A stretch of 64,000 nucleotides of DNA. It comes from an uncultured Fibrobacteraceae bacterium (GTDB lineage Bacteria > Krumholzibacteriota > Krumholzibacteriia > LZORAL124-64-63). This document shows, in pieces, positions 8,968-60,967 of this stretch. Every line of letters begins with the position of its first letter. Within the stretch, counting starts at the first letter, position 1. The translations under genes and the position numbers were made by a program. The DNA is taken from NCBI GenBank assembly GCA_964437115.1, contig CAYTFE010000001.1:169429-233428 (forward strand). Reading direction: 5' to 3'. Below the pieces are notes generated by a model. It ran no database searches. It was given only the letters and a program-made list of their open reading frames with translations, and was not told the origin of the DNA.

Positions 8968-9043
<76 letters not shown>

Positions 9044-9049
9044 TTTAGA

Positions 9050-9083: not shown

Positions 9084-9133
9084 CTGAATCTTGACTTTAG
9101 TATGCTGATGCTTCATTCTTTAGAATCTGTCAA

Positions 9134-9209
9134 GGCGGCATAGCCAAGTGGTAAGGCGACGGTCTGCAAAATCGTTATTTCCCCAGTTCGAGTCTGGGTG
9201 CCGCCTCCA
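9134..9209 (+). tRNA. tRNA-Cys (GCA)
   Basis: Acceptor ggcggca/tgccgcc, anticodon loop ctGCAaa, T-arm gttcgagtc, CCA encoded. Confidence 0.8.
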
Positions 9210-9213
9210 GTTC

Positions 9214-9244
9214 AAACACCGGCATCGTCGGTGTTTTGTTTTAT
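9214..9244 (+). terminator. Rho-independent terminator after tRNA-Cys.
   Basis: aaacaccg-gcatcgt-cggtgttt followed by a tgttttat tract. Confidence 0.5.
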
Positions 9245-9291
9245 GACAAATGTTGACTTTTGACAACTTCTGAAGCAAGATTCTTCTGTGT

Positions 9292-9379
9292 GCCGGGGTG
9301 GCGAAATTGGTAGACGCAAGGGACTTAAAATCCCTCGATACGTTGTATCGTGCCGGTTCAAGTCCGGCCCTCGGCACCA
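9292..9379 (+). tRNA. tRNA-Leu (TAA), class II with a long variable arm.
   Basis: Acceptor gccgggg/cctcggc (one G·U pair), anticodon stem-loop aggga-ctTAAaa-tccct, long variable arm, CCA encoded. Confidence 0.85.
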
Positions 9380-9409
9380 GAAACTTTAGTTTGTTGAAAG
9401 GAGTAGCAT

Positions 9410-10555: not shown

Positions 10556-11486
10556 ACTTTCAGTCATAATTCCTACATATAATAAAGCAGATTTGTTGCA
10601 ACAAACTCTAGATGCATTATCGAAGCAGAATTTAGATGTCTCCCAATGGCAACTTGTAGTGGTTAATGATGGCTCAACCGATAATACCGATGAAATCCTG
10701 AAAACATTTTCAGATATCTGGAAAGGTAATATTGAGCTTATAAAGCCAGAAGCTAACTTGGGCAGGGCCAAAGCTCGTAACCTTGGTGCAGAATCAGCCA
10801 GCGGTGATTACTTATTGTTTTTAGATGATGATATCGTGGCTCCAGTAAATCTTTTATCCAGCCATATGTTAAAACTTGATGCAGTGGGTGGGTTTGGGGT
10901 CATTGGAACTATTGTCACTTCAGCTGACTTGGTCGATGCTCCACATTTTTATTACATCGATTCCAGAGGTGTTGCAAAAATCAAGGCAGGCTTTGTTCCA
11001 GGTAAATATCTTGTGACCCAGAATTGTTCTATGCCACGTAAATTGTTTATAAAGGTCGGGGGATTTGATGAGAAATTCACGGCCTATGGTTTTGAAGATA
11101 TGGATCTTGGTATCAAACTTTGTAATGCCGGCCTGAAGTTTAGACTGCTAGATGGCCCTGTACCAATCCACGTTCACCATCATACCTTGAGTCAATACCT
11201 TGAGAAAAAACGGGAGTGTGGCGCTGAATCATTGGCACTTATTTCAGAAAAGCACCCTGAAAGTGTTGTCGATATGAGACTTAATTGGGTTCTTGAGAGA
11301 AGGCCTGGTTTTCTGATTAAATATTTCAGGTATTTGTCTACTTCGTTTTTTTATAAATTTGCTGTCAGTTTGGCAATTAAGTGGCCTTCCAACTCTGTGA
11401 ATAAGCCAATTTTCGAAAACATGTATTATAAACTCATGGACTTTTTAGTCATGGCTTCTTTTTATCGTGGATATCTGACATACTGA
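10545..11486 (+). CDS. Glycosyltransferase family 2 (GT-A).
   Basis: SVIIPTYNKADLL, VVNDGSTDNT and a DDD motif. Start assigned to the in-frame ATG at 10545. The 10236 start in the ORF track is a spurious out-of-frame extension across the GT1 3' end. Confidence 0.75.
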   Translation: MSIKLSVIIPTYNKADLLQQTLDALSKQNLDVSQWQLVVVNDGSTDNTDEILKTFSDIWKGNIELIKPEANLGRAKARNLGAESASGDYLLFLDDDIVAPVNLLSSHMLKLDAVGGFGVIGTIVTSADLVDAPHFYYIDSRGVAKIKAGFVPGKYLVTQNCSMPRKLFIKVGGFDEKFTAYGFEDMDLGIKLCNAGLKFRLLDGPVPIHVHHHTLSQYLEKKRECGAESLALISEKHPESVVDMRLNWVLERRPGFLIKYFRYLSTSFFYKFAVSLAIKWPSNSVNKPIFENMYYKLMDFLVMASFYRGYLTY

Positions 11487-13690: not shown

Positions 13691-13840
13691 CCAATATAGA
13701 ACGAAATTATATTTATTTTCGTGAGACGTTTGGCAAAATAATCTAAGTAGTGTAGAGTGAGATAAAAAAGGATTGGGAAGCCATTCTATCATTTGCACTA
13801 TCCTGGTCCTTCGCACAGTCTATTTTCGGGAGGTGCAAAA

Positions 13841-14698
13841 ATGTTTGAAGTAGAATTAAGTTTGGATCGTCGAGAAAGCGGTTGCCTTCAAAATTACCTG
13901 CAGTCAATTGGTCGCTACGACCTGATTACCCGTGAGAAAGAGTATGAATTAGCCAAGCTCATAAGAAGTGGCGATAGAGATGCGCTTGATGCACTTGTTA
14001 ATGCAAATCTTCGTTTTGTTGTAACTGTTGCCAAGAAATTTTTAAATCAAGGGTTAAGCTACATGGATCTGATTGCCGAAGGTAATTTAGGTCTCATAAC
14101 TGCAGCAGGTCGCTTCGATGAGACTAGAGAGTTTCGTTTCATTTCATACGCAGTCTGGTGGATTAGACAATCTATCCAGAAGGCAATTGCTGAACAAACC
14201 AATACAGTTAGATTGCCAGTTAATCGAACTCAGCAAGTTCAGAAGATTAAGAAAATCACCTGGGAATTTGAACAGACCCATTATCGACTTCCTTCTGATA
14301 CAGAACTTTCTGAGCGAGTAAATATCCCATTAGTTAAAATGGCTTTGATAAAAGCAGCAAGCCGGCCACTTGCAAGTTTAGATGAGAATGTTTTTGATTC
14401 TGAAGATATGACACTTTCAGAAATATTGGCTGATGAGTCACTGCCAAATCCAGAGGATGGTTATCTCCAGGGAGAAGTAGTGTCATTAATTGGATCAGCT
14501 CTTGATATTCTGACACCAAGAGAAAAAAAAGTTGTTTCCAGGTATTATGGGCTTGAAGATCTTGAATCTGTATCACTTGAAACTATTGGTCAGGATATGA
14601 ATTTGTCTCGAGAAAGAATTCGACAAGTAAGAAACCAGGCTTTGCTTAAAATCAGAAAACATGTAGCTTCTATGGAAGCTGTTAAGTTTGCTTCATAA
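13841..14698 (+). CDS. RNA polymerase sigma-70 family factor, RpoD-like but short (about 285 aa, no region 1.1); likely the primary sigma of an FCB-type organism.
   Basis: Region 2 (DLIAEGNLGLITAAGRFD, YAVWWIRQSI), region 3, and a region 4 HTH (TIGQDMNLSRERIRQVRNQAL). The ATG at 13841 has a GGGAGG SD, whereas the 13793 start lacks one. Confidence 0.8.
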   Translation: MFEVELSLDRRESGCLQNYLQSIGRYDLITREKEYELAKLIRSGDRDALDALVNANLRFVVTVAKKFLNQGLSYMDLIAEGNLGLITAAGRFDETREFRFISYAVWWIRQSIQKAIAEQTNTVRLPVNRTQQVQKIKKITWEFEQTHYRLPSDTELSERVNIPLVKMALIKAASRPLASLDENVFDSEDMTLSEILADESLPNPEDGYLQGEVVSLIGSALDILTPREKKVVSRYYGLEDLESVSLETIGQDMNLSRERIRQVRNQALLKIRKHVASMEAVKFAS

Positions 14699-27897: not shown

Positions 27898-28779
27898 GTG
27901 GAAATCAAACGTATTTCAATATTTGGTAATCCTGAAAAACAGGATATCTGCCATGCTGTAAATACAATACTTGATAAGGTCAAAGACTGTTCTGTTAAAG
28001 TTAATATACAGGAAAGTTTGGCTGAAGTAGTTGGTAAAAAAGAATTGTCGGTTAAAGAAGATCAGCTAGCGGATTGCTCTGATGCTGTAATTGCTCTTGG
28101 TGGTGATGGTACAATGCTACGTGCTGCCAGGGTATTGCTTGGAAGCTCGGTTCCATTGATGGGGGTTAATCTTGGAGCTTTAGGTTACCTTACCGATGTT
28201 CCTCTTTCTGATCTTTCTGAAAGCATAGAATTACTACTATCTGGTGACTTTACAGTTGTTGACAGAAAGCGTTTATTTGGTTCGATAAAAAGTGGTAAAA
28301 ATAAAGATAAGACCTTTGAAGCTCTGAATGACATTGTTGTGAATATGGGATCGTTGGCACGACCACTGCTTATGGAAATAATTATTAATGGTGTAAAGTT
28401 GGGAAAATTTTTAGGTGATGGACTAATTGTTAGTACTCCAACGGGATCAACTGCTTATAGCTTATCAGCTGGAGGATCAATAGCTCACCCTGCTGTATCG
28501 GCAATATTAATAACACCAATATGCCCCCATAGCTTGGCTATGCGGCCACTTCTTGCTCCTGAGGGAGAAGTGGAACTAATCCTTCACGATGCAGCTGCTG
28601 GGGCAATGCTCACTGCTGATGGCCAGGTTGCAGGTGAGTTGGGCGATGGCGATAGAATTTCCTATAAAATCAGTGAGCACAAAGTAAAATTAATAAAGTT
28701 CAAAAATAACGATTATTTCCGCTCAATGAGAAGAAAACTCCAATGGGGTGCGATAAAACGACGGAGTTACAGGGAATAA
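27898..28779 (+). CDS. nadK: NAD+ kinase.
   Basis: GTG start with a GGAGG SD. GGDGTML and NEVVV-like (NDIVVN) motifs, and TPTGSTAYSLSAGG. Confidence 0.85.
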   Translation: MEIKRISIFGNPEKQDICHAVNTILDKVKDCSVKVNIQESLAEVVGKKELSVKEDQLADCSDAVIALGGDGTMLRAARVLLGSSVPLMGVNLGALGYLTDVPLSDLSESIELLLSGDFTVVDRKRLFGSIKSGKNKDKTFEALNDIVVNMGSLARPLLMEIIINGVKLGKFLGDGLIVSTPTGSTAYSLSAGGSIAHPAVSAILITPICPHSLAMRPLLAPEGEVELILHDAAAGAMLTADGQVAGELGDGDRISYKISEHKVKLIKFKNNDYFRSMRRKLQWGAIKRRSYRE

Positions 28780-30671: not shown

Positions 30672-30845
30672 ATGAGAAATTTAATCCTGATAATATTAGC
30701 ATGGGTTGTCATAAGGCGACTAATGCGTTTGATAGATTCATTTTTACAAAATCGGAAAAATGTTAAGCAAAAAGATGCTAGTTATGAACATCTAACCGAC
30801 CAGGAAATTAGTGATGCTGATTACGAAGAAATCAAGAAAAAATAG
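30672..30845 (+). CDS. Possible small membrane protein (57 aa, DUF4834-like: N-terminal TM, C-terminal ...[10 protein letters not shown]).
   Basis: Below the 60-aa ORF-track cutoff, so translated by hand. No convincing SD. Overlaps the next ORF by about 35 nt in another frame. Confidence 0.25.
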
Positions 30846-31197
30846 GAGTTCTTCCTCAGCATATAAGTCACGATTCAGTGGTGATGCAGAATCCTTCCCA
30901 TTACGCCAATATCTTCGTGCAAAAGATGAGATTGTTAGCCGTTCAATTATGGCTGTTATTTTTACCGGTTTTGCAATTGCCCTTTCAGTATTTTCAAAAA
31001 CCGTATTTTTTCTAATTAATCGTCATGGTCAAAATCTTCATAATTCAACCAAATGGTTTGCTGCTGGTTTTGTCTTGATTTTGGTTGCTGTAGCTTTGTA
31101 TCGGTGTTATCGTTGCATCGGGGAAGTAATTGCAATACGACAAGATATAAAATGCTATAAAAAACAGATTGCACAATCTGCGGATGAGCTCGACTAA
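30811..31197 (+). CDS. Hypothetical two-TM membrane protein (128 aa).
   Basis: GTG/ATG start with a CAGGA SD. Basic N-terminus followed by two hydrophobic helices. No recognisable family. Confidence 0.4.
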   Translation: MMLITKKSRKNRSSSSAYKSRFSGDAESFPLRQYLRAKDEIVSRSIMAVIFTGFAIALSVFSKTVFFLINRHGQNLHNSTKWFAAGFVLILVAVALYRCYRCIGEVIAIRQDIKCYKKQIAQSADELD

Positions 31198-31268: not shown

Positions 31269-32561
31269 TTGTCAAAATCAAATTTCGAAAGTAAAAATGC
31301 TAAACTTGCAGTAATTGGACTGGGTTATGTCGGCTTACCGCTAGCTGTTGAATATGGTAAGGCTGGTTTTAAAGTTGTTGGAATTGATATTGACCAGAGC
31401 AAAGTTGAGCAGATTAACTCAGGCTCCAGTTATATTATTGATGTCCCAGATAGCGATATTAAGGAATTAGTGGATAAGGGATTATTATCGGCTTCTGTAG
31501 AATCCTCAGTAATATCTGAATGTAATAGCGTAAATATATGCGTACCAACACCATTGGGTAAGACTCAGGACCCGGATATTTCATTTATCGATGCGTCAGT
31601 TGATGCCATTGTGCCCTTTATGCATGATGGATTGTTGATAATTCTAGAGAGTACAACTTATCCAGGGACAACAGAAGAAGTGATACTGCCTAGATTATCT
31701 GAAAATGGAAAAATCGTTGGTAAGGATTTCTACCTTGCTTTTTCTCCTGAGCGAGTTGATCCAGGTAACAAACATTATCAAACAAAAAATATCCCTAAAG
31801 TTGTTGGTGGAGTGACTCCTGAGTGCACTAAAATGGCTGTTAGTCTATACGGTCAGGTTATGGATACAGTTGTTCCTGTTTCTTCATCTCGTGTTGCAGA
31901 GACAGTGAAGCTGCTTGAAAATACCTTCAGGAGCGTAAACATTGGCTTAGCTAATGAAATTGCTCTAATGTGCAGCTCAATGGGAATCAATGTGTGGGAA
32001 GTTATTGATGCTGCCTCAACCAAGCCATTCGGATATATGCCCTTTTATCCAGGCCCTGGATTGGGTGGTCATTGTATTCCAATTGATCCATTCTATTTGT
32101 CATGGAAAGCAAAGCAATCTGGATCTGATGCAAGGTTCATTGAACTTGCTGGAACGATAAATTCAAAAATGCCTGAGCATGTTGTGAATATTACAGCCAG
32201 TGCTTTGAATTCGTATAAAAAACCATTAAATGGTAGCAAGGCTCTTATTGTTGGTGTCTCATACAAACCAAATATCGATGATGTTCGGGAGTCACCTGCT
32301 CTGGATATTATCCAGCTACTTCATGATAAGGGAGCTGAAGTTTCCTGGTTTGATCCTGAAGTTGACTCTTTGACTGGTTTTGATTTTGCAAGGAAAATTG
32401 ATAAGTGGGGGGTTGATGAAATATCCGGCTATGATGTTGCAATAATTGTGACACCACATAGCTCAGTAGATCATCAAGCGATTATTGATGCAGATATTTT
32501 AACTGTTGATACACGAAACGCACTAGGGGCAACCGACAAGGAAAATATTTTCAGTCTGTAA
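31269..32561 (+). CDS. Nucleotide-sugar 6-dehydrogenase (UDP-GlcNAc/ManNAc dehydrogenase; WbpO/TviB/WecC type).
   Basis: TTG start with an AGGAGAGG SD. AVIGLGYVGLP NAD motif, catalytic Cys context (GGHCIP), and the three-domain UDPG/GMD dehydrogenase layout. Confidence 0.85.
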   Translation: MSKSNFESKNAKLAVIGLGYVGLPLAVEYGKAGFKVVGIDIDQSKVEQINSGSSYIIDVPDSDIKELVDKGLLSASVESSVISECNSVNICVPTPLGKTQDPDISFIDASVDAIVPFMHDGLLIILESTTYPGTTEEVILPRLSENGKIVGKDFYLAFSPERVDPGNKHYQTKNIPKVVGGVTPECTKMAVSLYGQVMDTVVPVSSSRVAETVKLLENTFRSVNIGLANEIALMCSSMGINVWEVIDAASTKPFGYMPFYPGPGLGGHCIPIDPFYLSWKAKQSGSDARFIELAGTINSKMPEHVVNITASALNSYKKPLNGSKALIVGVSYKPNIDDVRESPALDIIQLLHDKGAEVSWFDPEVDSLTGFDFARKIDKWGVDEISGYDVAIIVTPHSSVDHQAIIDADILTVDTRNALGATDKENIFSL

Positions 32562-32579
32562 TAGTTAGTAGGGGGAACA

Positions 32580-33521
32580 ATGAAGAAATGTCTAGTTACT
32601 GGGGGAGCAGGGTTTATTGGCTCACATATTTCAGCTGAGCTGGTCAGTCGTGGCTGTGAAGTGACAATATTAGATAATTTATCGACTGGTAAATTAGAAA
32701 ATATGGACTCATTTAAAGACGAAGTTAAGTTTGTTCAGGGTTCCATAACAGATATAAATCTTTTGCAGGAGAGCTTTGTAGGGATTGATACTATTTTCCA
32801 TCAAGCAGCGCTTGCATCAGTTCCAAGAAGTGTTGACGATCCAGTCACTTCTAATGACCATAATGTTAATGGAACTCTCAATGTTCTTGTCGCTGCAAGA
32901 GATGCTGGCGTAGATCGAGTTGTTTATGCCGCAAGCAGTAGCGCTTATGGTGATTCTGATGTACTTCCCAAAGTAGAAACTATGCCATCGAAGCCAATGT
33001 CTCCATATGCTGTTAACAAGTATGTTGGGGAATTGTATTTGAAGGTATTCAATGACATTTATGGACTGAGCACAATTGGGTTGCGTTATTTTAATGTTTT
33101 TGGTGAAAGACAGGATCCCCAAAGCCAGTATGCTGCTGTTCTGCCGCTTTTTATTACTCAATTGTTGACTGGGGATACACCTACAATCAATGGCGACGGT
33201 AGTTTTTCCAGAGACTTCACATATGTTGGCAATGTAGTTCACGCTAACATTTTAGCTGCTCAAATTGATAATCCAGATGGGGCGGTTGTAAATATTGCCT
33301 GTGGGGACAGAATATCTTTGAGCCAACTGTATGAGTCAATATCATCACTTCTAGGTGTTGACAAAGAACCTAATTATGCTGAGACTAGAATAGGTGATGT
33401 ACCTCATTCACAAGCGGATATTTCAATGGCGAAAAATCTACTTGATTATGAGCCGGTAACATCTTTCCAGAATGGCTTGGAAAAAACTGTGAATTGGTAT
33501 GTAGCCGATTCAAGTAAATAA
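32580..33521 (+). CDS. NAD-dependent nucleotide-sugar epimerase (WbpP/TviC/GalE type SDR).
   Basis: VTGGAGFIGSH, a YxxxK motif (YAVNKYVGE) and the extended-SDR fold. Confidence 0.85.
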   Translation: MKKCLVTGGAGFIGSHISAELVSRGCEVTILDNLSTGKLENMDSFKDEVKFVQGSITDINLLQESFVGIDTIFHQAALASVPRSVDDPVTSNDHNVNGTLNVLVAARDAGVDRVVYAASSSAYGDSDVLPKVETMPSKPMSPYAVNKYVGELYLKVFNDIYGLSTIGLRYFNVFGERQDPQSQYAAVLPLFITQLLTGDTPTINGDGSFSRDFTYVGNVVHANILAAQIDNPDGAVVNIACGDRISLSQLYESISSLLGVDKEPNYAETRIGDVPHSQADISMAKNLLDYEPVTSFQNGLEKTVNWYVADSSK

Positions 33522-33537
33522 GAGACTGGGGCTTCTG

Positions 33538-34482
33538 ATGAAAATGATATTTAGATTGCTGATATTTTTGTTGATTCTAATTCCTGCTTTAATATGCGCT
33601 CAAACTGGAGATGAAGTATATCTTCTGGGAGTGAGTGATGTGTTACAATTGAATGTTTTGCAGAGCCCAAATATGGATAGGCAATTGACTGTTAGACAAG
33701 ATGGAACTGTTGTGCTCCCTTCTATTGGTGCCATAGCTGTTGCAGGTTTTTCAGTAGTTGAGGCAGAGCAAATACTTAAAGACAAGCTCGTACTTTATGA
33801 TCGAGCTATCCAAGAAGTGACTTTGTCGATTGTTCAGTTCAATTCTTTACAGATATATATTCTGGGTGCTGTACGTCAGCCGGGCAGTTATACATTTTCC
33901 TCCCAGCCAACTCTTTGGGATTTAATCAGAGAATCTGGTGGAGTGACTGCAGAAGCCGTTTTGACCGATGTGAAAATAATTGCTAACGTTGATGGTGTAA
34001 ATGAATCTACAGACATGGATATTTCTGATCTCGTATCGGGCAACAATTCTGTAGCTCCAACTATTCTCAACTCCGGGGACACAGTTGTTATACCCTCTAC
34101 TTCGCAACTGTTTTTAACATCGTCAGTTTCTGGTGTGCAGGTATTTGGGGGAGTTGCTGCTCCTGGTACTTATCGAATCAAAAATCCAATGAGACTTGTT
34201 GATGTTTTAATGCTTGCTGGTGCTCCAACTGACGATGCTCAACTGGAGAAAGTAATTTGGGTTCATAACGTACATGGTGACCTCTATACCTCTAGTACTA
34301 TTGATTGCAAGTTATTTATGCTTGACGGAGATCTCGCAGGCAACCCGCTTGTATACCCTGGAGACGTTGTTCAGGTCACCTTGAATAGGGGCGGTTTTTG
34401 GAGAACTGTATATCCTTTGATATTAGGTACTCTTACTACAGTTGCTACTGTTGCATTTGCTGTGCATAGGCTTGGATTATAA
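33538..34482 (+). CDS. Polysaccharide export protein (Wza-like: Poly_export plus SLBB domains, C-terminal helix).
   Basis: Signal peptide, a PES-like motif region, repeated SLBB patterns, and a C-terminal hydrophobic helix (YPLILGTLTTVATVAFAV). Confidence 0.75.
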   Translation: MKMIFRLLIFLLILIPALICAQTGDEVYLLGVSDVLQLNVLQSPNMDRQLTVRQDGTVVLPSIGAIAVAGFSVVEAEQILKDKLVLYDRAIQEVTLSIVQFNSLQIYILGAVRQPGSYTFSSQPTLWDLIRESGGVTAEAVLTDVKIIANVDGVNESTDMDISDLVSGNNSVAPTILNSGDTVVIPSTSQLFLTSSVSGVQVFGGVAAPGTYRIKNPMRLVDVLMLAGAPTDDAQLEKVIWVHNVHGDLYTSSTIDCKLFMLDGDLAGNPLVYPGDVVQVTLNRGGFWRTVYPLILGTLTTVATVAFAVHRLGL

Positions 34483-34601
34483 ATATTAAAATAATTGTGC
34501 AGTATGGTGATATTTGTTGTATAGTATGTATGAGATTGATTGGGAGGTTAATCTATTAAATTATATCGACTGTGATGTAGTACAGGCAAAAGGGGGCAGA
34601 A

Positions 34602-35342
34602 ATGAACATAAGGCAATTAATAAATACTCAACAATACCACAAATATTATGAACCAAGTGTTGCTACAGTCAATAGTCCCAGTCAGTTACAGATATTTAGT
34701 TCATCAGAGAAATTCGGTAAAAGACTTTTCGACGTGCTGTTTTCCATCTTTATGATGTCATTGTTCATGTTGATATTTCCTATTATTGCAATAGCCATAA
34801 AAATCGATTCAAAAGGTCCAGTGTTTTATAGTCAAACCAGAATCGGGTTGAATAGAAGAAGACGACATTCAGGAAATACTGAGAATCGTAGATCGCTGGT
34901 TTATCCAGGTCGTCAATTTAAAGTGCTAAAATTACGTACGATGAAGACTGACGCTGAAGCTAATGGTCCGACTTGGGCTACTGAAAATGATAATCGAATT
35001 ACCAAAGTAGGCAAGTTGCTAAGAAGGTTCCGCCTCGATGAATTTCCACAGTTCTATAATGTGTTAAAAGGTGATATGAGCACTATCGGTCCTCGTCCTG
35101 AGAGACTTTGTTTCATTCGTCAGCTTGAAAATGATGTACCAGGTTATAATGAAAGACTATTAGTGCTTCCAGGAATTACAGGTTTAGCTCAAGTAGTTAA
35201 TGGATATGACACAAATTTGGAATCAGTTCGGAAAAAAGTTGCGTTGGATAAACATTATATCAGGAATTATTCAATATTCATGGATTTAAAGATATTAGTT
35301 ATTACAGTATGGGTTGTTATTACAGGTCGTGGAGCCAATTAA
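34602..35342 (+). CDS. Small monotopic phosphoglycosyl transferase (second PglC/WbaP-C-type copy).
   Basis: One N-terminal TM. DEFPQFYNVLKGDMSTIGPRP and GITGLAQV motifs. Has a 20-aa insertion rich in R/N relative to the first copy. Confidence 0.8.
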   Translation: MNIRQLINTQQYHKYYEPSVATVNSPSQLQIFSSSEKFGKRLFDVLFSIFMMSLFMLIFPIIAIAIKIDSKGPVFYSQTRIGLNRRRRHSGNTENRRSLVYPGRQFKVLKLRTMKTDAEANGPTWATENDNRITKVGKLLRRFRLDEFPQFYNVLKGDMSTIGPRPERLCFIRQLENDVPGYNERLLVLPGITGLAQVVNGYDTNLESVRKKVALDKHYIRNYSIFMDLKILVITVWVVITGRGAN

Positions 35343-35419
35343 ATAGAATACTTCCTTGCCGATTGTACCCTTAATCTTGTAGATTGTATTGAATCACAGT
35401 CTTCAAATTAGGGGTCTTA

Positions 35420-36814
35420 ATGCAGCCAGTAATTCTTGTCGTTGATGACGAGGCACCAATAATATCATTTCTCAGAAATACACTTGAGCAGCAGGATTAT
35501 AAAGTCGTTTCTGCCAGTGCAGGCCTGAGAGGTGTTGAAACAGCTAGTAAAGAGCAACCACATTTAGTACTTCTGGACTATATGCTTCCTGATATTGATG
35601 GCCTGGAAGTTATGCGTCGAATCCATCAGCAATATCCTAGCATGTGCATTATAATGATGACTGCTGATTCTACAGTAGCCACAGCAGTTAAGGCTATGCA
35701 TCAAGGTGCATTTGATTATATATCCAAGCCTTTCAATCTTGAGCAGCTTTTGGCATCGGTTAAGCGAGGACTTAAAGCATCCCTGGAAACTCGCGAATTA
35801 TTATTATTGAAAAGAACTGAAGGCAGTTCCTCAAATAGAGAACCTGAGGTAACTGATCTACCTGCATTGAGTTCAATTCTTGGCTCATCTCTTTATCAAG
35901 CATTTGATTCTGGGAAAACAATTTTGCTTGAAGGGGAGAACGGTGTCGGGAAAAAGTCATATGCAAAGCATTTATATGAAAAGTCAGACTTTGCTGCAGG
36001 TCCATTCTTAACTTTAAATTGCTCACTGCTGCCTGATGATGAAATAGAATCTGAATTATTTGGTGCAAACATTGATGAGTCGGACAGTCATACCAATACG
36101 GGTTTGCTGGAACTTTCTCATAATGGCGTGCTGTTTTTAGAGGAAATAGCTTCATTACCTTTATCGGTTCAGAAATTATTGTTAGACTCTATCAAAACTG
36201 GTACGTTTGTTCGTGTTAATGGACAAGCAAAGATTCATTCTAATTTCAAGCTGATTGTTAGCACTTGTAAAAATTTGCAATTGCTTGTTGATCAAGGGGA
36301 ATTTAGTGAAGATCTTTACTTCTTATTAAAAGCTACAGGCTGTGTAATTCCTCCACTAAGAGCACGAAATAGTGATATTATGCCAATTGCCCAGCATTAT
36401 CTTAGTCACTATAATGCTGTCTATCATAGACGAATTGCTGGCTTTAAACTTGATGCTGAACTTGCTATGGAGTCTTATCACTGGCCAGGCAATTCACGCG
36501 AATTGAGCAACTCAATTGAGATGGCAATCTTGAAAGCCGACTGTGACCTTCTTGAACCTGTTCATCTTGGGTTAACTCCGTCAGGCAAAACGGTTGAAAA
36601 TGACATTATCTCTAATATAGTTTCAGCAATGAGCCGGCCTCTTGATGAAGAGCCTGTTGATCTTGAAGTATTGTTGAATGAACTTGAAACAATACTAGTG
36701 TCAAAAGCAATGTCTGCAGCTGGTGGAAATAAAAGCAAAGCAGCACGATATCTTGGTCTGAACAGAGATAAAATTCGATATCGATTGAAAGCCCTTGCAG
36801 AGGAGCAGAATTGA
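35420..36814 (+). CDS. NtrC-family response regulator (receiver + AAA+ + Fis-type HTH) lacking the GAFTGA sigma-54 contact motif.
   Basis: Receiver domain (VVDDE...LLDYMLPDIDG). Walker A GENGVGKK, Walker B LFLEEI, and an Arg finger (PPLRAR). The position of ELFGHEKGAFTGA reads ELFGANIDESDSHTNTG. C-terminal HTH AARYLGLNRDKIRYRLK. Confidence 0.8.
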   Translation: MQPVILVVDDEAPIISFLRNTLEQQDYKVVSASAGLRGVETASKEQPHLVLLDYMLPDIDGLEVMRRIHQQYPSMCIIMMTADSTVATAVKAMHQGAFDYISKPFNLEQLLASVKRGLKASLETRELLLLKRTEGSSSNREPEVTDLPALSSILGSSLYQAFDSGKTILLEGENGVGKKSYAKHLYEKSDFAAGPFLTLNCSLLPDDEIESELFGANIDESDSHTNTGLLELSHNGVLFLEEIASLPLSVQKLLLDSIKTGTFVRVNGQAKIHSNFKLIVSTCKNLQLLVDQGEFSEDLYFLLKATGCVIPPLRARNSDIMPIAQHYLSHYNAVYHRRIAGFKLDAELAMESYHWPGNSRELSNSIEMAILKADCDLLEPVHLGLTPSGKTVENDIISNIVSAMSRPLDEEPVDLEVLLNELETILVSKAMSAAGGNKSKAARYLGLNRDKIRYRLKALAEEQN

Positions 36815-37308
36815 AATTCATAATACTACTTTTAGTAGCGATTGCCTTTTTACCAGGATGTGGGATTTATTCTGCATCATCAGGCAGAGTTGATGACTCG
36901 GTTAAAGAAGTCAGCATTCCATATTTGGTAAATGAAACTGCAGAACCTGGCATCGGACTAGAATTAACAGATGCAATAGTTGAAGCTATTCAGACTGATA
37001 ATACATTGAAAATTGTTGACGATTCAATCTCCAGTTCGGAAATAACAGGTCGTGTAGTGAGGTATAAACTCAAAGAAGCATTTACAACCTCTGATTTAAA
37101 GGTTGATGAGTACCAGGTACAGATTCTTGTAGAATTGTCGATGCGAGTAAAGGGTGCAGATTCTTACTTGTTTGAGAACAAAAAAATTGCTGGTACAGGA
37201 AACTATATTCTTGATGACCCTGAAGGAACTTCTGAACAAACTGCCCGAGTAGAAGCAGCTGGTGAAATTGTTCGAGAAATATTGGCTACAATTGTGGAGG
37301 ACTGGTAG
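36811..37308 (+). CDS. lptE: LptE-like LPS-assembly lipoprotein.
   Basis: TTG start overlapping the regulator's stop (TTGA). Lipobox LPGCG. About 165 aa, and positioned immediately upstream of holA as in the E. coli leuS-lptE-holA arrangement. Confidence 0.45.
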   Translation: MKFIILLLVAIAFLPGCGIYSASSGRVDDSVKEVSIPYLVNETAEPGIGLELTDAIVEAIQTDNTLKIVDDSISSSEITGRVVRYKLKEAFTTSDLKVDEYQVQILVELSMRVKGADSYLFENKKIAGTGNYILDDPEGTSEQTARVEAAGEIVREILATIVEDW

Positions 37309-38336
37309 TGGCCAAACGGAAATCTCCTGGAAATAACATTGAAACTCTCCGATCTGAATTTAAATCGGGCTCAACCAAGCAGATCTATCTACTTGAAGGG
37401 GAGAACCCAGATAAGGTCAGAGGTGTTGTAGATTATTTATCGAAATCTTTACTAGGAGAATCGGGAGCTGCTTTCAATTTTCACAAATATGATGGCGACC
37501 AGCATGGAATAGACAAGGTATTGCAACAGTCTGTTACCATACCGATGATGTGCAATTGTCAGGTGTTATGGATTAAGAACGCAGAAAAATCTGTTGCCGA
37601 TCAAGCATTAGAAGAGGCTTTAATTAACTATTTTGATAAACCAGAAAATTCTACTGTAATAATATTTTCTGCAAATAAATTTGATGGCAGAAAGAAGTGG
37701 GTCAAAAGTGCAAAATCGTATGGTTATTTCTATGATCTTAATCCTCCAAAGGGATTTGCTCTTGTAAATTCTACAATTACTGAGGCAAAAAAGCATGGTT
37801 TAATTCTTGATGATGAGCTTGCTGGACTACTAGTTGAGATGACTGGTGAGGATCAGGTAGCCATTACAACCGAGTTAGCGAAAATTGCATTGATTGTAGA
37901 TGATAATGGAGTTGCAAAAAGAGATGAGATTCTTAAAATAATCTTGGATCAACGCTCTGTTGATGTGTTTTCCTTTGTTAATGCAATTGGGCCTGGGAAG
38001 ACTGCCACTGGACTTGAGGTATTTAGAAAATATCTTGCAGAAGGCAGATCTGTTTATGAAATTGCGCCTTTACTGATATGGAAAATCAAGCAAATAGTTT
38101 TGGTTCAGTCTTTGCTTGATGAAGGTGTTTCGGAAAACGAAATTCCTGGTCGAGCTGGAATGTCTCCATATGCAGCAAAGCAATCTGTTTTAGCTGCTAG
38201 AAACTGGGGATCAAGCGGGGTTAAAGCAGCACTATTTGCATGCAATCAGTGTGAAAAAGACTTAAAAGGTAGTCCTCTTGGGCCCGAAATTGTTTTAGAG
38301 AGAACTATTCTCTCAATATGTAATCCTGATTCTTGA
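37308..38336 (+). CDS. holA: DNA polymerase III delta subunit.
   Basis: GTG start overlapping the lptE stop (TAGTG). IYLLEGEN N-terminal pattern, about 340 aa, and conserved position after lptE. Confidence 0.65.
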   Translation: MAKRKSPGNNIETLRSEFKSGSTKQIYLLEGENPDKVRGVVDYLSKSLLGESGAAFNFHKYDGDQHGIDKVLQQSVTIPMMCNCQVLWIKNAEKSVADQALEEALINYFDKPENSTVIIFSANKFDGRKKWVKSAKSYGYFYDLNPPKGFALVNSTITEAKKHGLILDDELAGLLVEMTGEDQVAITTELAKIALIVDDNGVAKRDEILKIILDQRSVDVFSFVNAIGPGKTATGLEVFRKYLAEGRSVYEIAPLLIWKIKQIVLVQSLLDEGVSENEIPGRAGMSPYAAKQSVLAARNWGSSGVKAALFACNQCEKDLKGSPLGPEIVLERTILSICNPDS

Positions 38337-38356: not shown

Positions 38357-38686
38357 ATGTCAGATTTCACTATGGAAATTACAGACGATAATTTTGAAGA
38401 AAGCGTTGTTAAATCAGATTTACCTGTAGTTATCGACTTTTGGGCACCATGGTGTGGCCCTTGTAAGTTATTAGCGCCTGTCATGGATCAGATTGCTGAA
38501 GAATATGCAGGGAAGATTTCTGTTGGAAAAATGGATATCGCCCAACATCAGTCTAAAGCAACTGAACTTGGTATCATGTCAATTCCAGCTTTGTTATTCT
38601 ATAAAGATGGCAAAGTAGTTGGATCAATGATTGGTAACCAGCCTAAAGACAATATCATTGCTAAAATCAACGAAATAATCGATTAA
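38357..38686 (+). CDS. trxA: Thioredoxin.
   Basis: WAPWCGPCK active site, 109 aa. Confidence 0.9.
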   Translation: MSDFTMEITDDNFEESVVKSDLPVVIDFWAPWCGPCKLLAPVMDQIAEEYAGKISVGKMDIAQHQSKATELGIMSIPALLFYKDGKVVGSMIGNQPKDNIIAKINEIID

Positions 38687-51604: not shown

Positions 51605-53104
51605 TTATTTATCGATTGTCTTTGATATTGCTGATTCAAACAAGTCATTCGCATTGTCGTATTTTCCCGGATATGTCACACGGCCGGCTTGAATGCCAAG
51701 TTTATCTGATTTGATAACTTCTTTAATTATTTGGATTAAGCGTCGTTCAAATCTGGAAACAGATTGAGATTCTTCAGGCGCGACAATAGCGATTGTATTG
51801 TCATTGACCATTGCTAGAGAGTCTGAACTTCTTACTGATTCGATGAGAATTCTGAGTATTGGAGTTACAGGAATGCTAAGCTTGATAACTGTCAAAGAGA
51901 AAGATGTATGATATCGATTTGAGCGGTCTATTTCATTCTTGAGTCGTGCAAGTAAGTCTTGTTCATTTTCAATTGCAGAATCACAGGTAGCACCAATAAA
52001 ATAGTTTTTGAAAGTTGGCAGCAGTTTTAAAGCAAATAAGGCGTCGTCTTTGCAGAACAAAGCACCGTCAAGTTGATGGACTGGAGTTTTCCCATGGAAT
52101 ACAACGGTAAAATCTGAATCATCAATAATAAGTAGATTTGCCGGAAAATCATCAGTGAATGCATAGCCAGATATGGCTTTGTCTTTTAATTCCATCAACC
52201 GATCCGGTATATTGTCTTGTGTCAGGTAGAACTCAACCTTATCGGAACCAAACAGCTGATTTAATACATCAGTATTGAAATCATTATTTTCGGCCAAACT
52301 GAGAACTGTTTCCATGGCGTTCAGAGCAAGATCTGGCCTGTGATTGTCGAGTGAATTGCTTATAACGGTATCGATATTGATTGCAAATGTTTCGAGTACA
52401 TCTTCAATTACTTCTGCAAAGTGTTCTTGGTATGAAGTAGTTGAAAATTCAACAGAAAGTGCCGATTTGAATTTCGTGGTTGTTAATGGAAGATACTCTC
52501 GTATGAAACCATATGAGCCATCGGTGCTATCTATTTTCAGCTTTCGCGATTTCAGTATTGAATTCTGCCAACCAGGGTGACTGTTATCAATTACCCCAAA
52601 CCTGGTAGAACCGTCTTTATCACTTTCAATGAGAAGTAACTTTGAGTCAGGTATTTCAATAGCAACTGATACAAAGTCGGCTTTGAATTCCATTGCAGCT
52701 GTGGAACACCAAACTGCAATTGCGTGATCCACACGATCAAATTCACAGGCTGTTTCATCCAGACTGAAATCACAAATTTCAGATTGAACTGCTGGAACTT
52801 TCATTTTGTGAAAAAAAGAGCTGGTAGAACATTTCGCAATGTTCAGCAGATGTGCGGTATCTGACAGAGAAGCTGAATGTTCCAGTGCGTCAGGATAAAC
52901 AAGAATGGAATTTTCTGGAATATTGTCTTTGCCTATCGATATCAACACTGGAAACCCTAATTTGACAGCTATCTCCTGTGCCGCAACAGAAAGGTTGTCA
53001 GGGTCGAGGATTGCATAAATACTGGCACCAGCGAATAAGGCCTTATCAGAGATAAGTCCAGATTCGTAAACTCCTGGCTGATACAGTATTACTTTCAAAA
53101 TCAC
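51605..53104 (-). CDS. Hypothetical 499-aa protein between mutS and mutL. Its C-terminal about 120 aa may form a highly degenerate GGDEF-like fold (GGEEF replaced by NDNT).
   Basis: No clear motifs. Weak positional similarity of RSNRYHTSFSLTVIKL ... AMVNDNTIAIV ... LGIQAGRVTYP ... DLFESA to GGDEF blocks. The N-terminal 380 aa are unassigned. Confidence 0.4.
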   Translation of the reverse strand: MILKVILYQPGVYESGLISDKALFAGASIYAILDPDNLSVAAQEIAVKLGFPVLISIGKDNIPENSILVYPDALEHSASLSDTAHLLNIAKCSTSSFFHKMKVPAVQSEICDFSLDETACEFDRVDHAIAVWCSTAAMEFKADFVSVAIEIPDSKLLLIESDKDGSTRFGVIDNSHPGWQNSILKSRKLKIDSTDGSYGFIREYLPLTTTKFKSALSVEFSTTSYQEHFAEVIEDVLETFAINIDTVISNSLDNHRPDLALNAMETVLSLAENNDFNTDVLNQLFGSDKVEFYLTQDNIPDRLMELKDKAISGYAFTDDFPANLLIIDDSDFTVVFHGKTPVHQLDGALFCKDDALFALKLLPTFKNYFIGATCDSAIENEQDLLARLKNEIDRSNRYHTSFSLTVIKLSIPVTPILRILIESVRSSDSLAMVNDNTIAIVAPEESQSVSRFERRLIQIIKEVIKSDKLGIQAGRVTYPGKYDNANDLFESAISKTIDK

Positions 53105-57976: not shown

Positions 57977-58291
57977 TTATTCCTCCACACTCTCATTGTC
58001 AATATCCTTGAGAGGTAATTTACGCAGTTCAGCAATTTCTTTATCCCTGTTTCTGAGAATATTATTAGCGCCTCGTAATTGGTTGCGAAGACGAATTTCA
58101 CGGATGCCTGCAATCATTAGGCTGAAAACAATTCCAAGTAGAAAAGAGGCAATCATTACATAATAAAGAGACAGATCAAGATACTCTTTGTTCAAGACCT
58201 TGATATCAACCGATTGTGAACTGTTTTGGGTAAAGAAAACAGCAAGTATAATAATTACCAATAGATAAATGATACTCTTAAATATTAACAT
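57977..58291 (-). CDS. lapA: LapA (YciS/DUF1049)-like small inner-membrane protein.
   Basis: 104 aa with two TM helices and a C-terminal charged coiled segment. Immediately upstream of the lapB-like gene. Confidence 0.55.
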   Translation of the reverse strand: MLIFKSIIYLLVIIILAVFFTQNSSQSVDIKVLNKEYLDLSLYYVMIASFLLGIVFSLMIAGIREIRLRNQLRGANNILRNRDKEIAELRKLPLKDIDNESVEE

Positions 58292-59624
58292 CGGCAGTTC
58301 CTTTCATGGTGGCCGCAGAAACGATTTTACCTAAAAATGAAGACCCGTTGCTGCCAGTTATCTTCACCGAAATTAAATCGCCAGGTTGAGATTCAGTTCC
58401 ATCGACAATAACCTTGCGGTTATTTGCAGATCTGGCTTTTACTGAATTTTCGGAATGTCTAGCTTCTCCCTCAACTACAACAGACCATATTTCACCAACA
58501 GCGTCTTTTGTTATATTCTGCCAGACTTCTTCCTGAACATCCAGCAATTCCGACAATCTTTCTTTTTTAATTTCGATCGGCACATCGTCAATCATTTTAC
58601 ATGCTGGTGTTCCTGGTCGTTCTGAATACTTGAAACAGAAGGCCTGATCGAATTTGACATCGCGCATCAGCTGGACAGTTTGCCTGAAATCATCATCTGT
58701 CTCACCCGGGAATCCAACAATGAAATCTCCGGAGAATGTTACATCAGGAATCTTTAGCCTAGCTTGCTCTATAATTCGCATATAGTCAGCAACTTTATAA
58801 TATCTTTTCATTCTTTTTAATACCCGATCACTACCACTTTGGGCAGGGATATGAAGCCATGGACAAACTGCATCAAGTTCTGCAATTGTATCAATCAACT
58901 CATCGTCGATGTCACAAGGGTGGCTGGTCAGAAAACGAATACGATCAAGATTTTCAATTCTGGAAACCTGTTGAATCAGTTTGGTAAAATTCATCCCTGG
59001 AGCGCTATATGCTGTAACATTTTGACCAAGCAGAGTTACTTCCCTGCCACCTTGATCAACAATGTTTTTAATCTCATCTAAAATCATCAGAGGAGATTTT
59101 TCACGTTGTGGACCACGAGTCGATGGCACAATACAGTAGGTGCATTTGTAATCGCACCCTTTATGAATAGTAACTAAATGAGAATTATTGACAGGATATG
59201 CTTCAACTGGCGCAACATAGTGAACATCATCCTGGTGGCCGGTTGCTACATTGACTTTAGCGTTTCCAGCTACTGCATTTTCGAGCAGTTGAGGTAATTG
59301 TGCATATTGGTCTACGCCAGCTATAAGGTCAGGTCGATGAGAAACTTCATGAAGCTTTTTACCCAAACGTTCGGCCATACAACCGCAAATACCGATTATT
59401 TGTTTAGGGCGATTTGCACGTTTCTGTTTTATGCGCAAACTACCTATGCGGCTCAGAATTTTGTGTTCAGCATGGTCTCTAACTGAACAGGTATTTATCA
59501 AAACAGCATCAGCAATTTCAGGCAATTCAACGGTAGTATGACCAGCATCTTCAAGTATGCCAGTAATAGCTGTAGAATCATACGAATTCATCTGACAGCC
59601 ATAAGTTTCAATAAATATCTTCAA
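58278..59624 (-). CDS. miaB: tRNA-i6A37 methylthiotransferase MiaB.
   Basis: N-terminal UPF0004 (FIETYGCQMNSYDS), radical SAM CxxxCxxC (CDYKCTYC), and a TRAM domain. Confidence 0.9.
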   Translation of the reverse strand: MKIFIETYGCQMNSYDSTAITGILEDAGHTTVELPEIADAVLINTCSVRDHAEHKILSRIGSLRIKQKRANRPKQIIGICGCMAERLGKKLHEVSHRPDLIAGVDQYAQLPQLLENAVAGNAKVNVATGHQDDVHYVAPVEAYPVNNSHLVTIHKGCDYKCTYCIVPSTRGPQREKSPLMILDEIKNIVDQGGREVTLLGQNVTAYSAPGMNFTKLIQQVSRIENLDRIRFLTSHPCDIDDELIDTIAELDAVCPWLHIPAQSGSDRVLKRMKRYYKVADYMRIIEQARLKIPDVTFSGDFIVGFPGETDDDFRQTVQLMRDVKFDQAFCFKYSERPGTPACKMIDDVPIEIKKERLSELLDVQEEVWQNITKDAVGEIWSVVVEGEARHSENSVKARSANNRKVIVDGTESQPGDLISVKITGSNGSSFLGKIVSAATMKGTADVNI

Positions 59625-60967
59625 GACTCGTCTCCATTAATTTCAATTGTCTGCATTGTAGTTGCAGAAAGTACACCATTTTCAGGAGCACCGATTTTCA
59701 CTTTAAGCAGAGTTCCAGTTTTACATGTCTCTGGAACTTGAATTGTTGTAAAGTTATCCAAAGTAGCATTAATATGTCCAGGAATACCCTGCCCACTCTC
59801 CACTATAGCTTCATGCCAGGTACCTTGCAAACCTTGTTCAAATAGATCTTTTTTAATTTCGCTCAATTGCCTGAGTTTCTTTGAACGCTCAGATGCAATT
59901 AAGGGGTTAACTTGTTTCATTTGTTCAGCTTTTGTGCCCGGTCTGGAAGAATACTGAAATATATGCATATAAGACATTGGCAGTTGTTCAAGTGCTGAAT
60001 ACGTTTCCTCAAACTCAGAATCTGTTTCTTCAGGAAAACCTGTAATTATATCTGCTCCAATCCCAAATCCCGGCAGCAACTTTTCAGCTTTCTTAATTAC
60101 AATAATTGCAATGTCTGTGCGATATGGTCTTTTCATTCTTTCAAGTACAGAATCAGACAAACTTTGCAAAGAGAGGTGCAAGTATGGTTGTAAGTTTTTG
60201 AATTCACTGAAAAGTGAAAGTAACTCATCGTCAACTTCATTTGGATGAATACTGCTTAATCGGAATCTCAACTCAGGGAATTGAGTCAATATTATGGTTA
60301 ACATTTCATACAACGAGATTCTCTGTGAAAAATCGTTGCCATAGCTGCCAACATTGACACCAGTCAATACAAATTCAATGAAACCTTTATTGGCTAGTCT
60401 TTCAATTTGCTCTGCAATATCTTCTACAGTTCTGCTACGGGCCGGTCCCCTTGCTTTCCAAATCAAGCAATAAGTGCAGCGAAGATTACAGCCATCCTGA
60501 ATCTTTACAAAAGCCCTGGTCTTTCCTTCAAAATTTGAAATTAATTCCGATCTGAACTGCATATGTTTATGAAAAGACTCAACTTCTAAAATTTTTGTAT
60601 TCGAAATAATTAAATCAGGTAACCAGTCGGATATATTTTCTCTTTCCGAAATACCATAAATGCCATCAATTTCCGGAATATCTGAAAGAACTTCAGGTTG
60701 TGTCTGGGCATAGCAACCCGTGACAACTACTTTTGCCCCTGGGTTTTTATTCTTTATTCGACGAGCAGTTTGTCGAGTCTTCTGATCAGCTTTACCAGTA
60801 ACGGTACAACTGTTTATGATGAATACATCGGCATCGGAATCCCAAGGCACCACTTCACAATTAATATTGGCAGGTAAAGCGGTTTTCATAGCTTCAGTGT
60901 CATACTGATTTAGTCGACAGCCAAGCGTGTAGAAAGCTATTTTTACTGTTGTGGTACAGTTATCCAA
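59621..60967 (-). CDS. mtaB: MiaB-family methylthiotransferase, MtaB-like (t6A37 methylthiotransferase).
   Basis: KIAFYTLGCRLNQYDTEA N-terminus (MtaB/YqeV-type), radical SAM CNLRCTYC, and a TRAM domain. Confidence 0.75.
   Translation of the reverse strand: MDNCTTTVKIAFYTLGCRLNQYDTEAMKTALPANINCEVVPWDSDADVFIINSCTVTGKADQKTRQTARRIKNKNPGAKVVVTGCYAQTQPEVLSDIPEIDGIYGISERENISDWLPDLIISNTKILEVESFHKHMQFRSELISNFEGKTRAFVKIQDGCNLRCTYCLIWKARGPARSRTVEDIAEQIERLANKGFIEFVLTGVNVGSYGNDFSQRISLYEMLTIILTQFPELRFRLSSIHPNEVDDELLSLFSEFKNLQPYLHLSLQSLSDSVLERMKRPYRTDIAIIVIKKAEKLLPGFGIGADIITGFPEETDSEFEETYSALEQLPMSYMHIFQYSSRPGTKAEQMKQVNPLIASERSKKLRQLSEIKKDLFEQGLQGTWHEAIVESGQGIPGHINATLDNFTTIQVPETCKTGTLLKVKIGAPENGVLSATTMQTIEINGDES

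Follow-up and report, generated by a model that had tools for sequence, protein, structure and literature searches.

The 64-kb window analysed here (64,000 nucleotides of contig CAYTFE010000001.1 from an uncultured marine bacterium) contains a gene for a response regulator, hereafter the window regulator, which combines a receiver (REC) domain, an AAA+ domain and a Fis-type helix-turn-helix (HTH). This architecture is that of the NtrC-like enhancer-binding proteins (EBPs), the activators of sigma-54 RNA polymerase. Judging from its sequence and from analogy with characterised proteins, however, the window regulator is probably a phosphorylation-controlled, sigma-54-independent DNA-binding regulator with a dead ATPase, descended from a canonical sigma-54 activator. 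As far as the motifs tell, it fails the hallmarks of functional sigma-54 activators at the GAFTGA loop, the Walker B Asp, the arginine finger and the sensor-I Asn. Since all of these are needed for ATP-driven remodelling, it probably does not act via sigma-54. The first-pass annotation of this DNA had already proposed a GAFTGA-less NtrC-family regulator that is probably sigma-54-independent, and the further losses of the finger, the Walker B Asp and the sensor-I Asn strengthen this proposal.

Motifs of the AAA+ domain and rarity of the variant

The window regulator was aligned with Aquifex NtrC1 and the 60 best database matches, and NtrC1 numbering was used as the register (F216 in GAFTGA, D238/E239, R293/R299). 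In the L1 loop, where canonical proteins read GAFTGA, the window regulator reads ANIDESDSHTNT in register with NtrC1, exactly as the first-pass annotation had stated. The possibility that GAFTGA is only displaced by an indel was rejected: the NtrC1 register is clear, the motif occurs nowhere else in the protein, and the sole other 'GAF' is an unrelated REC motif at residue 96. GAFTGA at the tip of L1 contacts sigma-54 and serves as a criterion for functional sigma-54 activators (PMC3162934).

The AAA+ core had also been described as intact, which turned out to be incorrect. Walker B reads LFLEEI instead of LFLDEI, so that NtrC1 D238-E239 correspond to E241-E242; sensor I reads VSTC instead of AATN, with the Asn replaced by C283; and the arginine-finger segment reads FSEDLYFLL instead of FREDLYYRL, NtrC1 R293 and R299 being replaced by S296 and L302. 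NtrC1 R299 is equivalent to PspF R168, the trans-acting finger that touches the gamma-phosphate, and R293 to PspF R162, the second arginine; formation of the open complex by the sigma-54 holoenzyme needs ATP hydrolysis (PMC7175178). The GAFTGA, sensor-I Asn (N at 283), arginine and Walker B positions are each at least 90% conserved in our 45-sequence alignment A2. An arginine finger had been reported as present, and our guess is that the sensor-II R360 or an arginine of the PPLRAR motif may have been mistaken for it.

Walker A reads GENGVGKK in place of the canonical GESGxGK[DE]: K178 is kept, the Ser is replaced by Asn and the acidic residue after the Lys by Lys. Canonical relatives read GE[ST]G[TV]GK[DE] at this site, with the single exception of P0038, which ends in G. 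Sensor II is GNSRELSN (canonical GNxRELxN), with R360, invariant in alignment A2, kept, and the switch Asn N200 is intact. The surviving key AAA+ residues are limited to the Walker A Lys, the switch Asn and the sensor-II Arg; the arginines of the conserved PPLRAR motif also survive. The earlier statement that the receiver, Walker A, Walker B and the HTH are all present is correct for the REC acceptor set, for Walker A K178 and for the HTH_8 domain; it does not hold for Walker B, where the Asp has become Glu. The Walker B Asp is not strictly conserved even in apparently sigma-54-competent members, because four proteins (L058:6107-7501, P0133, P0154 and P0183) carry N-E instead of D-E and are otherwise canonical, with GAFTDA and both arginines.

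Outside the catalytic motifs the protein is a recognisable family member. The Pfam model Sigma54_activat (PF00158) matches residues 159-305 with 118.7 bits against a cut-off of 20.2 (E 2.8e-34), and AAA_lid_14 matches residues 314-384. The phospho-acceptor set of the REC domain (D9, D10, D53, T81 and K103) is present; in alignment A2, D9, D10, D53 and K103 are invariant and T81 is nearly so. All NCBIfam equivalog cut-offs were missed, namely those of NtrC (TIGR01818, 280.7 against 558.6), AtoC (NF008469, 276.9 against 714), NtrX (NF051870, 267.2 against 600) and PEP-CTERM PrsR (TIGR02915, 242.3 against 502.6), and the scores for LuxO and other models are likewise far under the cut-offs. Membership in PrsR had been considered because of weak PEP-CTERM-type matches of the neighbouring exporter and transferase, and was rejected on these scores. 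By sequence, the window regulator thus belongs to the family but is none of the named regulators NtrC, NtrX, AtoC or PrsR.

In an AlphaFold model with a pLDDT of 86, each of the four domains adopts a folded structure, and both insertions, L1 and L2, are kept as structural elements; the L1 hairpin persists, its tip residues 220-224 having a pLDDT below 50, and residues 395-405 form a helix.

The combination of losses is confined to a narrow clade. The only close relatives are P0001-P0004 (67-91% identity), all remaining database matches being at 45% or less. All 55 non-clade matches that were examined have GAFT[DGS]A, the sensor-I Asn and both arginines, and 54 of them have DE in Walker B (the exception, P0010, has HE); the window clade, save P0004/P0403, differs from those 55 at the Walker B Asp too. 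An exhaustive HMMER search of 1.84 billion 50%-identity representatives returned a single cluster for the variant, represented by P0002 at 915 bits, and the next score was 326 bits. The 149 nearest representatives include 110 that match the canonical pattern at each of the five positions. GAFTGA was lost independently about six times among them, and no other protein in this set lacks both arginines. A metagenome search with two weak peptide patterns derived from the clade alignment added at least one further fragment (L035). A protein identical to the window regulator (P0406) is found on 12 public contigs, the longest of 437 kb, which indicates a recurrent environmental organism as its source.

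Positional orthologues, order of losses and constraint

By sequence and gene order, the window regulator is the positional orthologue of a canonical sigma-54 activator, because the relatives that occupy this slot have fully canonical motifs and are 36-45% identical to it. In P0005 (45% identity) and P0020 (40%) the same order of sugar block, regulator, lptE, holA, trx and a MamF-like gene is found, and in P0049 (36%) the order is dxs-nadK, a dehydrogenase, and a PAS histidine kinase followed by regulator-lptE-holA-trx; all three have canonical motifs. Together with P0007, P0008 and L058, they make up six canonical orthologues that stand before lptE and holA and usually overlap the lptE start. 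These six have GAFT[DS]A, FREDLYYRL or FRGDLYYRL, the sensor-I Asn and, except for L058 (N-E), a D-E Walker B. Their REC domains are 42-56% identical to that of the window regulator and their HTH domains 34-66% (about 60% in all but P0049), and their AAA+ cores share 64-82% identity among themselves and only 34-44% with the window regulator.

The conserved unit is regulator-lptE-holA, followed by trx in every lineage but L058; in the latter, other genes separate the sugar block from the canonical regulator. The place of the regulator upstream of lptE-holA-trx would be the ancestral gene order. In the most distant syntenic lineage, a gene for a PAS-HisKA-HATPase histidine kinase (L033:6151-8004) overlaps the regulator start, which suggests an ancestral kinase-regulator-lptE-holA unit from which the kinase was lost or moved in other lineages. 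The first-pass annotation had the regulator gene closing an exopolysaccharide block. This is true loosely, in that sugar genes precede it, but the deep linkage is to lptE-holA-trx and not to the sugar genes. Its tie to exopolysaccharide regulation finds no support, as the orthologues stay with lptE-holA-trx where a kinase replaces the sugar genes (L033) or where genes intervene (L058). The coupling to lptE-holA that it described is borne out by the overlapping starts and stops given in Table 1.

No rpoN, histidine kinase or second EBP gene was found in the window or within about 9 kb past either end (about 83 kb in all), and the reported absence of an adjacent kinase was thus confirmed. The label 'orphan' is apt in the sense that no kinase is near. 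Orphan status is nevertheless not linked to the loss of GAFTGA, because the canonical P0005, P0020 and L058 share it.

MutS, used for an approximate placement in the FCB group, has its nearest named matches in a Gemmatimonas sp. (60%) and in Candidatus Krumholzibacteriia (57%). The G+C content is 62-69% in the lineages with canonical regulators (L028, L032 and L033), 40% in the window clade and 31% on a short contig (L034) of a sister sublineage. Across the syntenic relatives, this strong drop coincides with the decay of the motifs.

The sister sublineage allows the losses to be ordered. Its MutS and HolA are 78% and 77% identical to those of the window, and in the same slot, on a 269-kb contig, it encodes the full-length P0403 (458 aa). 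Like the window regulator, P0403 lacks GAFTGA (ESRVESSKI in its place), has Cys in sensor I and has lost both arginines (FNEKLYYLL); its Walker A is GENGVGKR, and its Walker B still has DE (LYIDEI). The sigma-54 loop, the fingers and sensor I were consequently lost before the two sublineages split, since these losses are common to both proteins, whereas the Walker B Asp changed later and only in the window sublineage, as P0403 keeps DE. There is no conserved new L1 sequence, because ANIDESDSHTNT in one sublineage stands against ESRVESSKI in the other.

A truncated sister version without REC and Walker A (P0004) was also considered. On its contig, L034 (1486 bp, 2.3x coverage), the regulator frame begins only downstream of Walker A, and an unrelated open reading frame (ORF) stands before it. 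The coverage is low and the sequence recurs as the C-terminal part of the full-length P0403, so the truncation was rejected; it is most likely an artefact such as an assembly chimera, and less likely a real deletion variant.

Selection was compared across four genomes (window, L001, L002 and L031), in which dS (synonymous divergence) is 0.6-1.1, as it is for the flanking genes. The ratio of nonsynonymous to synonymous divergence (dN/dS) is 0.05-0.08 for the whole gene, 0.02-0.07 for the AAA+ core, 0.01-0.05 for the HTH, 0.07-0.11 for REC and 0-0.06 for the pre-HTH segment; these values are approximate, since dS is near saturation in some comparisons, and dN is uniformly small. The gene has no stops or frameshifts in any of the four genomes, and the dN/dS values rule out a pseudogene.

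The constraint on the AAA+ core has nevertheless changed. For the neighbour genes (lptE, holA, trx, transferase and epimerase), the window, L028 and L032 are about equidistant, mostly at 43-61% identity (the lowest value, 33%, is that of holA between the window and L032). REC and HTH follow this pattern and the AAA+ core departs from it, with 64-73% identity among canonical orthologues against 36-44% between the window regulator and any of them. We also compared single domains at a matched genomic distance (MutS 78-80%). In the canonical pair P0007/P0008 identity is 69% for REC, 82% for the AAA+ core, 75% for the lid, 35% for the pre-HTH segment (386-419) and 80% for the HTH, whereas in the degenerate pair of the window regulator and P0403 the respective values are 73, 59, 71, 74 and 88%. 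The constraint has moved: the ATPase core, which is the most conserved domain in the canonical pair, is the least conserved of the folded domains in the degenerate pair, and the pre-HTH linker, free to vary in canonical proteins, has become highly constrained. This shift would fit a release from the ATPase and sigma-54 constraint together with the gain of a functional surface.

Promoter region and neighbouring genes

The features of the locus are collected in Table 1. The window is a housekeeping region with the order thrS-infC-rplT-pheST, rny, folD, ispA, dxs, nadK, recN, sugar block, regulator, lptE, holA, trx.

Table 1. Features of the regulator locus, in window positions
Feature	Position	Strand	Basis or remark
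Upstream sugar block: nucleotide-sugar dehydrogenase, TviC-like epimerase, Wza/EpsE-like exporter, polyprenyl glycosylphosphotransferase	31269..35342	+	Neighbourhood; no demonstrated target
Conserved 77-bp intergenic region, likely sigma-70-type promoter TTGCCG-N18-TAGATT and GGGG ribosome-binding site	35343..35419	+	Conservation
13-nt direct repeat, copies CTTGCCGATTGTA and CTTGTAGATTGTA, 21 nt start to start	35355..35388	+	Overlaps putative -35 and -10
Regulator gene, 464-aa REC / degenerate AAA+ / Fis-HTH response regulator	35420..36814	+	ORF; Pfam, NCBIfam and PDB comparisons
Receiver domain, residues 5-114	35432..35761	+	Pfam Response_reg, E 7e-31
Walker A GENGVGKK, residues 172-179	35933..35956	+	Alignment with canonical relatives
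L1 loop ANIDESDSHTNT, residues 216-227, in place of GAFTGA	36065..36100	+	Alignment and AlphaFold model
Walker B LFLEEI, residues 238-243, Asp to Glu at 241	36131..36148	+	Alignment
Sensor-I segment VSTC, residues 280-283, Asn to Cys	36257..36268	+	Alignment
Arginine-finger segment FSEDLYFLL, residues 295-303, S296 and L302	36302..36328	+	Alignment
Sensor-II segment GNSRELSN, residues 357-364, R360 kept	36488..36511	+	Alignment
Pre-HTH segment, residues 386-419, newly constrained in degenerate clade	36575..36676	+	Identity and dN/dS
Fis-type HTH, residues 420-458	36677..36793	+	Pfam HTH_8, E 4e-10
lptE lipoprotein gene, TTG start overlapping regulator stop (TTGA), lipobox LPGC	36811..37308	+	Pfam LptE, E 4e-8
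holA, DNA polymerase III delta subunit, GTG start overlapping lptE stop by 1 nt	37308..38336	+	
trx, thioredoxin, last conserved member of regulator-lptE-holA-trx unit	38357..38686	+	Synteny

The intergenic region in front of the regulator shows only 2-7 mismatches among the four genomes. It contains a CCTTGC[CG] box followed, 17-18 nt on, by a -10-like hexamer, and the same arrangement is found in the GC-rich canonical loci L028 and L032; the promoter-like elements are TTGCCG-N18-TAGATT in the window, TTGCCC-N17-CATAAT in L032 and TTGCGC-N17-GATACT in L028. We infer that this region is a conserved sigma-70-type promoter of regulator-lptE-holA, possibly with an operator. The 13-nt direct repeat, which is conserved in L001, L002 and L031, is a possible operator, or could be of chance origin.

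Targets of sigma-54 activators are expected to have a -24/-12 promoter (GG-N10-GC) with an upstream enhancer. The window holds no mismatch-free -24/-12 consensus, and no convincing site was found near the sugar genes. Nor is there a convincing -24/-12 site in the syntenic loci of degenerate or canonical relatives, a comparison that is uninformative. The best match, TGGCACGACCACTGCT (28355..28370, 11 of 12 positions), lies inside nadK. Loose TGGCAC-N5-TTGCW matches with up to two mismatches number 59 in the window against 37.6 +/- 5.2 in shuffled sequences, with no intergenic consensus site among them, and this excess is probably a composition or codon effect.

Several other genes of the window deserve mention. 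Between recN and the sugar dehydrogenase lies an ORF of 128 aa (30811..31197, plus strand) with two hydrophobic stretches and no Pfam family. Its position and sequence are kept in L031 (106 of 127 residues identical), L028 (39 of 131) and L032 (27 of 94); it shares the motif SRF...FPLR(Q/K)YLR with L031 and L028, and the shorter ORF of L032 has only the LRQYLR part. Its product looks like a conserved small membrane protein with no assigned function. The sugar block beside the regulator is not the sole polysaccharide locus, since a second glycan cluster (5817..11486, plus strand) lies 20 kb upstream of it, with genes for a DegT aminotransferase, a second Bac_transf priming transferase, a GFO/IDH/MocA oxidoreductase and GT4 and GT2 glycosyltransferases.

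The only sigma factor gene of the window (13793..14698, plus strand), downstream of dnaK, encodes a compact sigma-70-family protein of 301 aa (regions 1.2 to 4) that scores under the RpoD, RpoS and RpoH equivalog cut-offs; a gene for an extracytoplasmic function sigma factor lies just past the left end of the window (L060). Between mutS and mutL there is a 499-aa ORF (51605..53104, minus strand) with no Pfam family and only a GGDEF match at E 0.003, and an independent contig (L059) has a 497-aa gene at this position. Finally, two tandem, overlapping genes for 448-aa radical-SAM methylthiotransferases (58278..59624 and 59621..60967, minus strand; UPF0004 and Radical_SAM, MiaB/RimO-like) adjoin a LapA-domain gene and TPR (LapB-like) genes.

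Mode of action, alternatives and significance

EBPs without a functional GAFTGA have been described before. In the count of Francke et al., about 110 of some 5000 homologues had a defective GAFTGA (PMC3162934). By its sequence, the window regulator meets the definition of the atypical EBPs (TyrR, HupR, VpsR, NtrX and Rhodobacter NtrC), that is, an EBP AAA+ domain lacking a functional GAFTGA.

A suitable comparison is VpsR of Vibrio cholerae (PDB 7V2B), a homologue at E 2e-33 with the same REC-AAA+-HTH architecture and likewise without GAFTGA. The Walker B of VpsR is degenerate (N-D) and the protein lacks ATPase activity; together with sigma-70 polymerase it forms open complexes, and it regulates polysaccharide genes (PMC6158489). 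Its Walker B differs from the E-E of the window regulator, it requires cyclic di-GMP (c-di-GMP), and the two proteins, which come from different phyla, are not orthologous; the AAA+ segment of the window regulator scores 74 bits against VpsR and 116 bits against NtrC1.

The closest solved relatives are Aquifex aeolicus NtrC1 (PDB 1NY5 and 4L4U; E 1e-68) and Brucella abortus NtrX (PDB 5M7N; E 5e-56). NtrC1, a canonical activator, has the same architecture of REC, helical linker and AAA+ and aligns without large gaps, but its GAFTGA (F216), D238-E239, R293 and R299 stand against ANIDESDSHTNT, E-E, S and L in the window regulator. NtrX, a repressor, has a shortened L1 without GAFTGA (PMC6158489). 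Its full-length REC-AAA+-HTH structure aligns with residues 4-459 of the window regulator and, unlike the latter, retains both arginines (FREDLFHRL) and a D-E Walker B. NtrX is encoded beside its kinase NtrY.

In NtrC of Rhodobacter capsulatus and Caulobacter crescentus, L1 deletions remove GAFTGA, and both proteins work at sigma-70 promoters and depend on phosphorylation; in Rhodobacter NtrC, ATP must be bound but need not be hydrolysed, whereas Caulobacter NtrC appears to need hydrolysis too (bioRxiv 10.1101/2023.06.06.543975). Both have a working Walker A and B, adjacent NtrB kinases and nitrogen genes as targets, whereas the window regulator has neither the hydrolysis residues nor an adjacent kinase.

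In our reading, the window regulator descends from a canonical sigma-54 activator of the kind encoded immediately before lptE-holA-trx in related FCB-group lineages. The sequences show that, within a single narrow lineage of uncultured, low-GC marine bacteria, its AAA+ module lost GAFTGA and the residues required for ATP hydrolysis (both finger arginines, the sensor-I Asn and, later, the Walker B Asp). The P-loop lysine and the general fold are retained, and so are the receiver domain and the Fis-type HTH. Such a protein could no longer remodel the sigma-54 holoenzyme; most likely it would repress sigma-70-type promoters or activate them by recruitment, much like VpsR, NtrX and the NtrC proteins of Rhodobacter and Caulobacter. 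Action at such promoters has indirect support in the sigma-70-like promoter region conserved in front of its own gene. The dead AAA+ domain may serve as a scaffold for nucleotide binding and oligomerisation, phosphorylation of Asp53 by an unlinked kinase would be the switch, and the pre-HTH segment is possibly a new interaction surface. Its own conserved promoter region and cell-envelope genes are candidate targets.

Several points weigh against this model, in addition to the approximate nature of the dN/dS values. The choice between repression and activation is a guess. The absence of rpoN and of other canonical EBPs refers to the roughly 83 kb inspected. The loss of ATPase activity is read from the sequence, and Mg2+ could still be bound by a Glu in place of the Walker B Asp. 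Moreover, the Walker A and B residues are still required in Caulobacter NtrC, another protein without GAFTGA (bioRxiv 10.1101/2023.06.06.543975). A cognate kinase may be encoded elsewhere in the genome.

A more ambitious version of the story seems to us rather doubtful: the EBP-lptE-holA-trx unit would be an ancient control module of envelope biogenesis, the whole sigma-54 system would have been lost in this streamlined, low-GC marine lineage, and the orphaned activator, instead of being discarded, would have been converted to a sigma-70-dependent regulator with a new surface at residues 386-419 for contact with RNA polymerase or a partner.

The fully conserved REC acceptor residues argue for continued phosphorylation, and they make it improbable that the degenerate pocket has become a receptor for a small ligand, e.g. 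c-di-GMP, which would be the main input, with the adjacent polysaccharide genes as the output. It is true that the P-loop GENGVGK[KR] is kept in both degenerate sublineages despite the catalytic losses, that the gene comes after a Wza-like exporter and a priming glycosyltransferase, and that VpsR and FleQ provide a precedent as c-di-GMP-binding EBP-family regulators of polysaccharide genes (PMC6158489). The linkage to sugar genes, however, is not kept across the orthologues; binding of c-di-GMP by the window regulator is a conjecture; and no clear GGDEF/EAL gene lies nearby, the sole match being the weak one mentioned above.

The retention of the AAA+ fold and of the oligomerisation surfaces after the loss of catalysis might also suggest an anti-activator, a dominant-negative subunit that forms mixed inactive rings with a canonical EBP or competes for its enhancer sites; the HTH, about 60% identical to those of the canonical orthologues (88% to that of P0403), may recognise similar sites. 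We consider this very unlikely. At this locus the canonical orthologue has been replaced and not duplicated, and the inspected 83 kb give no evidence of a paralogue or of other EBPs.

Even less credible is continued activation of sigma-54 through a non-canonical L1 loop. The Sigma54_activat score well over the Pfam cut-off, the structural persistence of the L1 and L2 insertions and the canonical orthologues at the same locus agree with such a role. Yet GAFTGA is wholly replaced, and differently so in the two sublineages; both arginines and the sensor-I Asn are gone, although the open complex needs ATP hydrolysis (PMC7175178); and the syntenic loci offer no convincing -24/-12 site. A decaying relic whose frame is kept for translational coupling or for the promoter of the essential lptE-holA, to which the joint loss of several catalytic motifs, the AAA+ core as the least conserved folded domain of the clade and the apparent absence of the 5' half on the low-coverage contig L034 might point, is the least probable of all and largely refuted by the low dN/dS, the intact frames in four genomes, the full-length P0403 in the sister sublineage and the identical protein on 12 contigs.

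As a phosphorylation-controlled, sigma-54-independent regulator, the protein is a further example of the known class of atypical EBPs and nothing fundamentally new. It has been proposed that members of this class (VpsR, NtrX, TyrR and HupR, for example) link sigma-54 and sigma-70 regulation in evolution (PMC6158489). For most of the known atypical EBPs there is no close canonical orthologue. Here, degenerate and canonical forms share a conserved gene slot, and because of this the losses can be ordered and the shift in constraint can be measured. The distinctive features of the case are this clean evolutionary bracket, the two-step order of the losses and the completeness of the catalytic decay. 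Should the more ambitious version prove true, it would be a dated, phylogenetically bracketed natural case of a sigma-54 activator turning into a sigma-70 regulator.

The public label of the protein, "sigma-54-dependent Fis family transcriptional regulator", is probably mistaken, and regulon predictions based on it would be misled in an abundant uncultured marine lineage. We found no relevant literature on an association between EBPs and lptE, and the EBP-lptE-holA linkage in these lineages appears to be undescribed in the searchable literature. Its conservation hints at a link, likewise undescribed, between two-component signalling and outer-membrane biogenesis.

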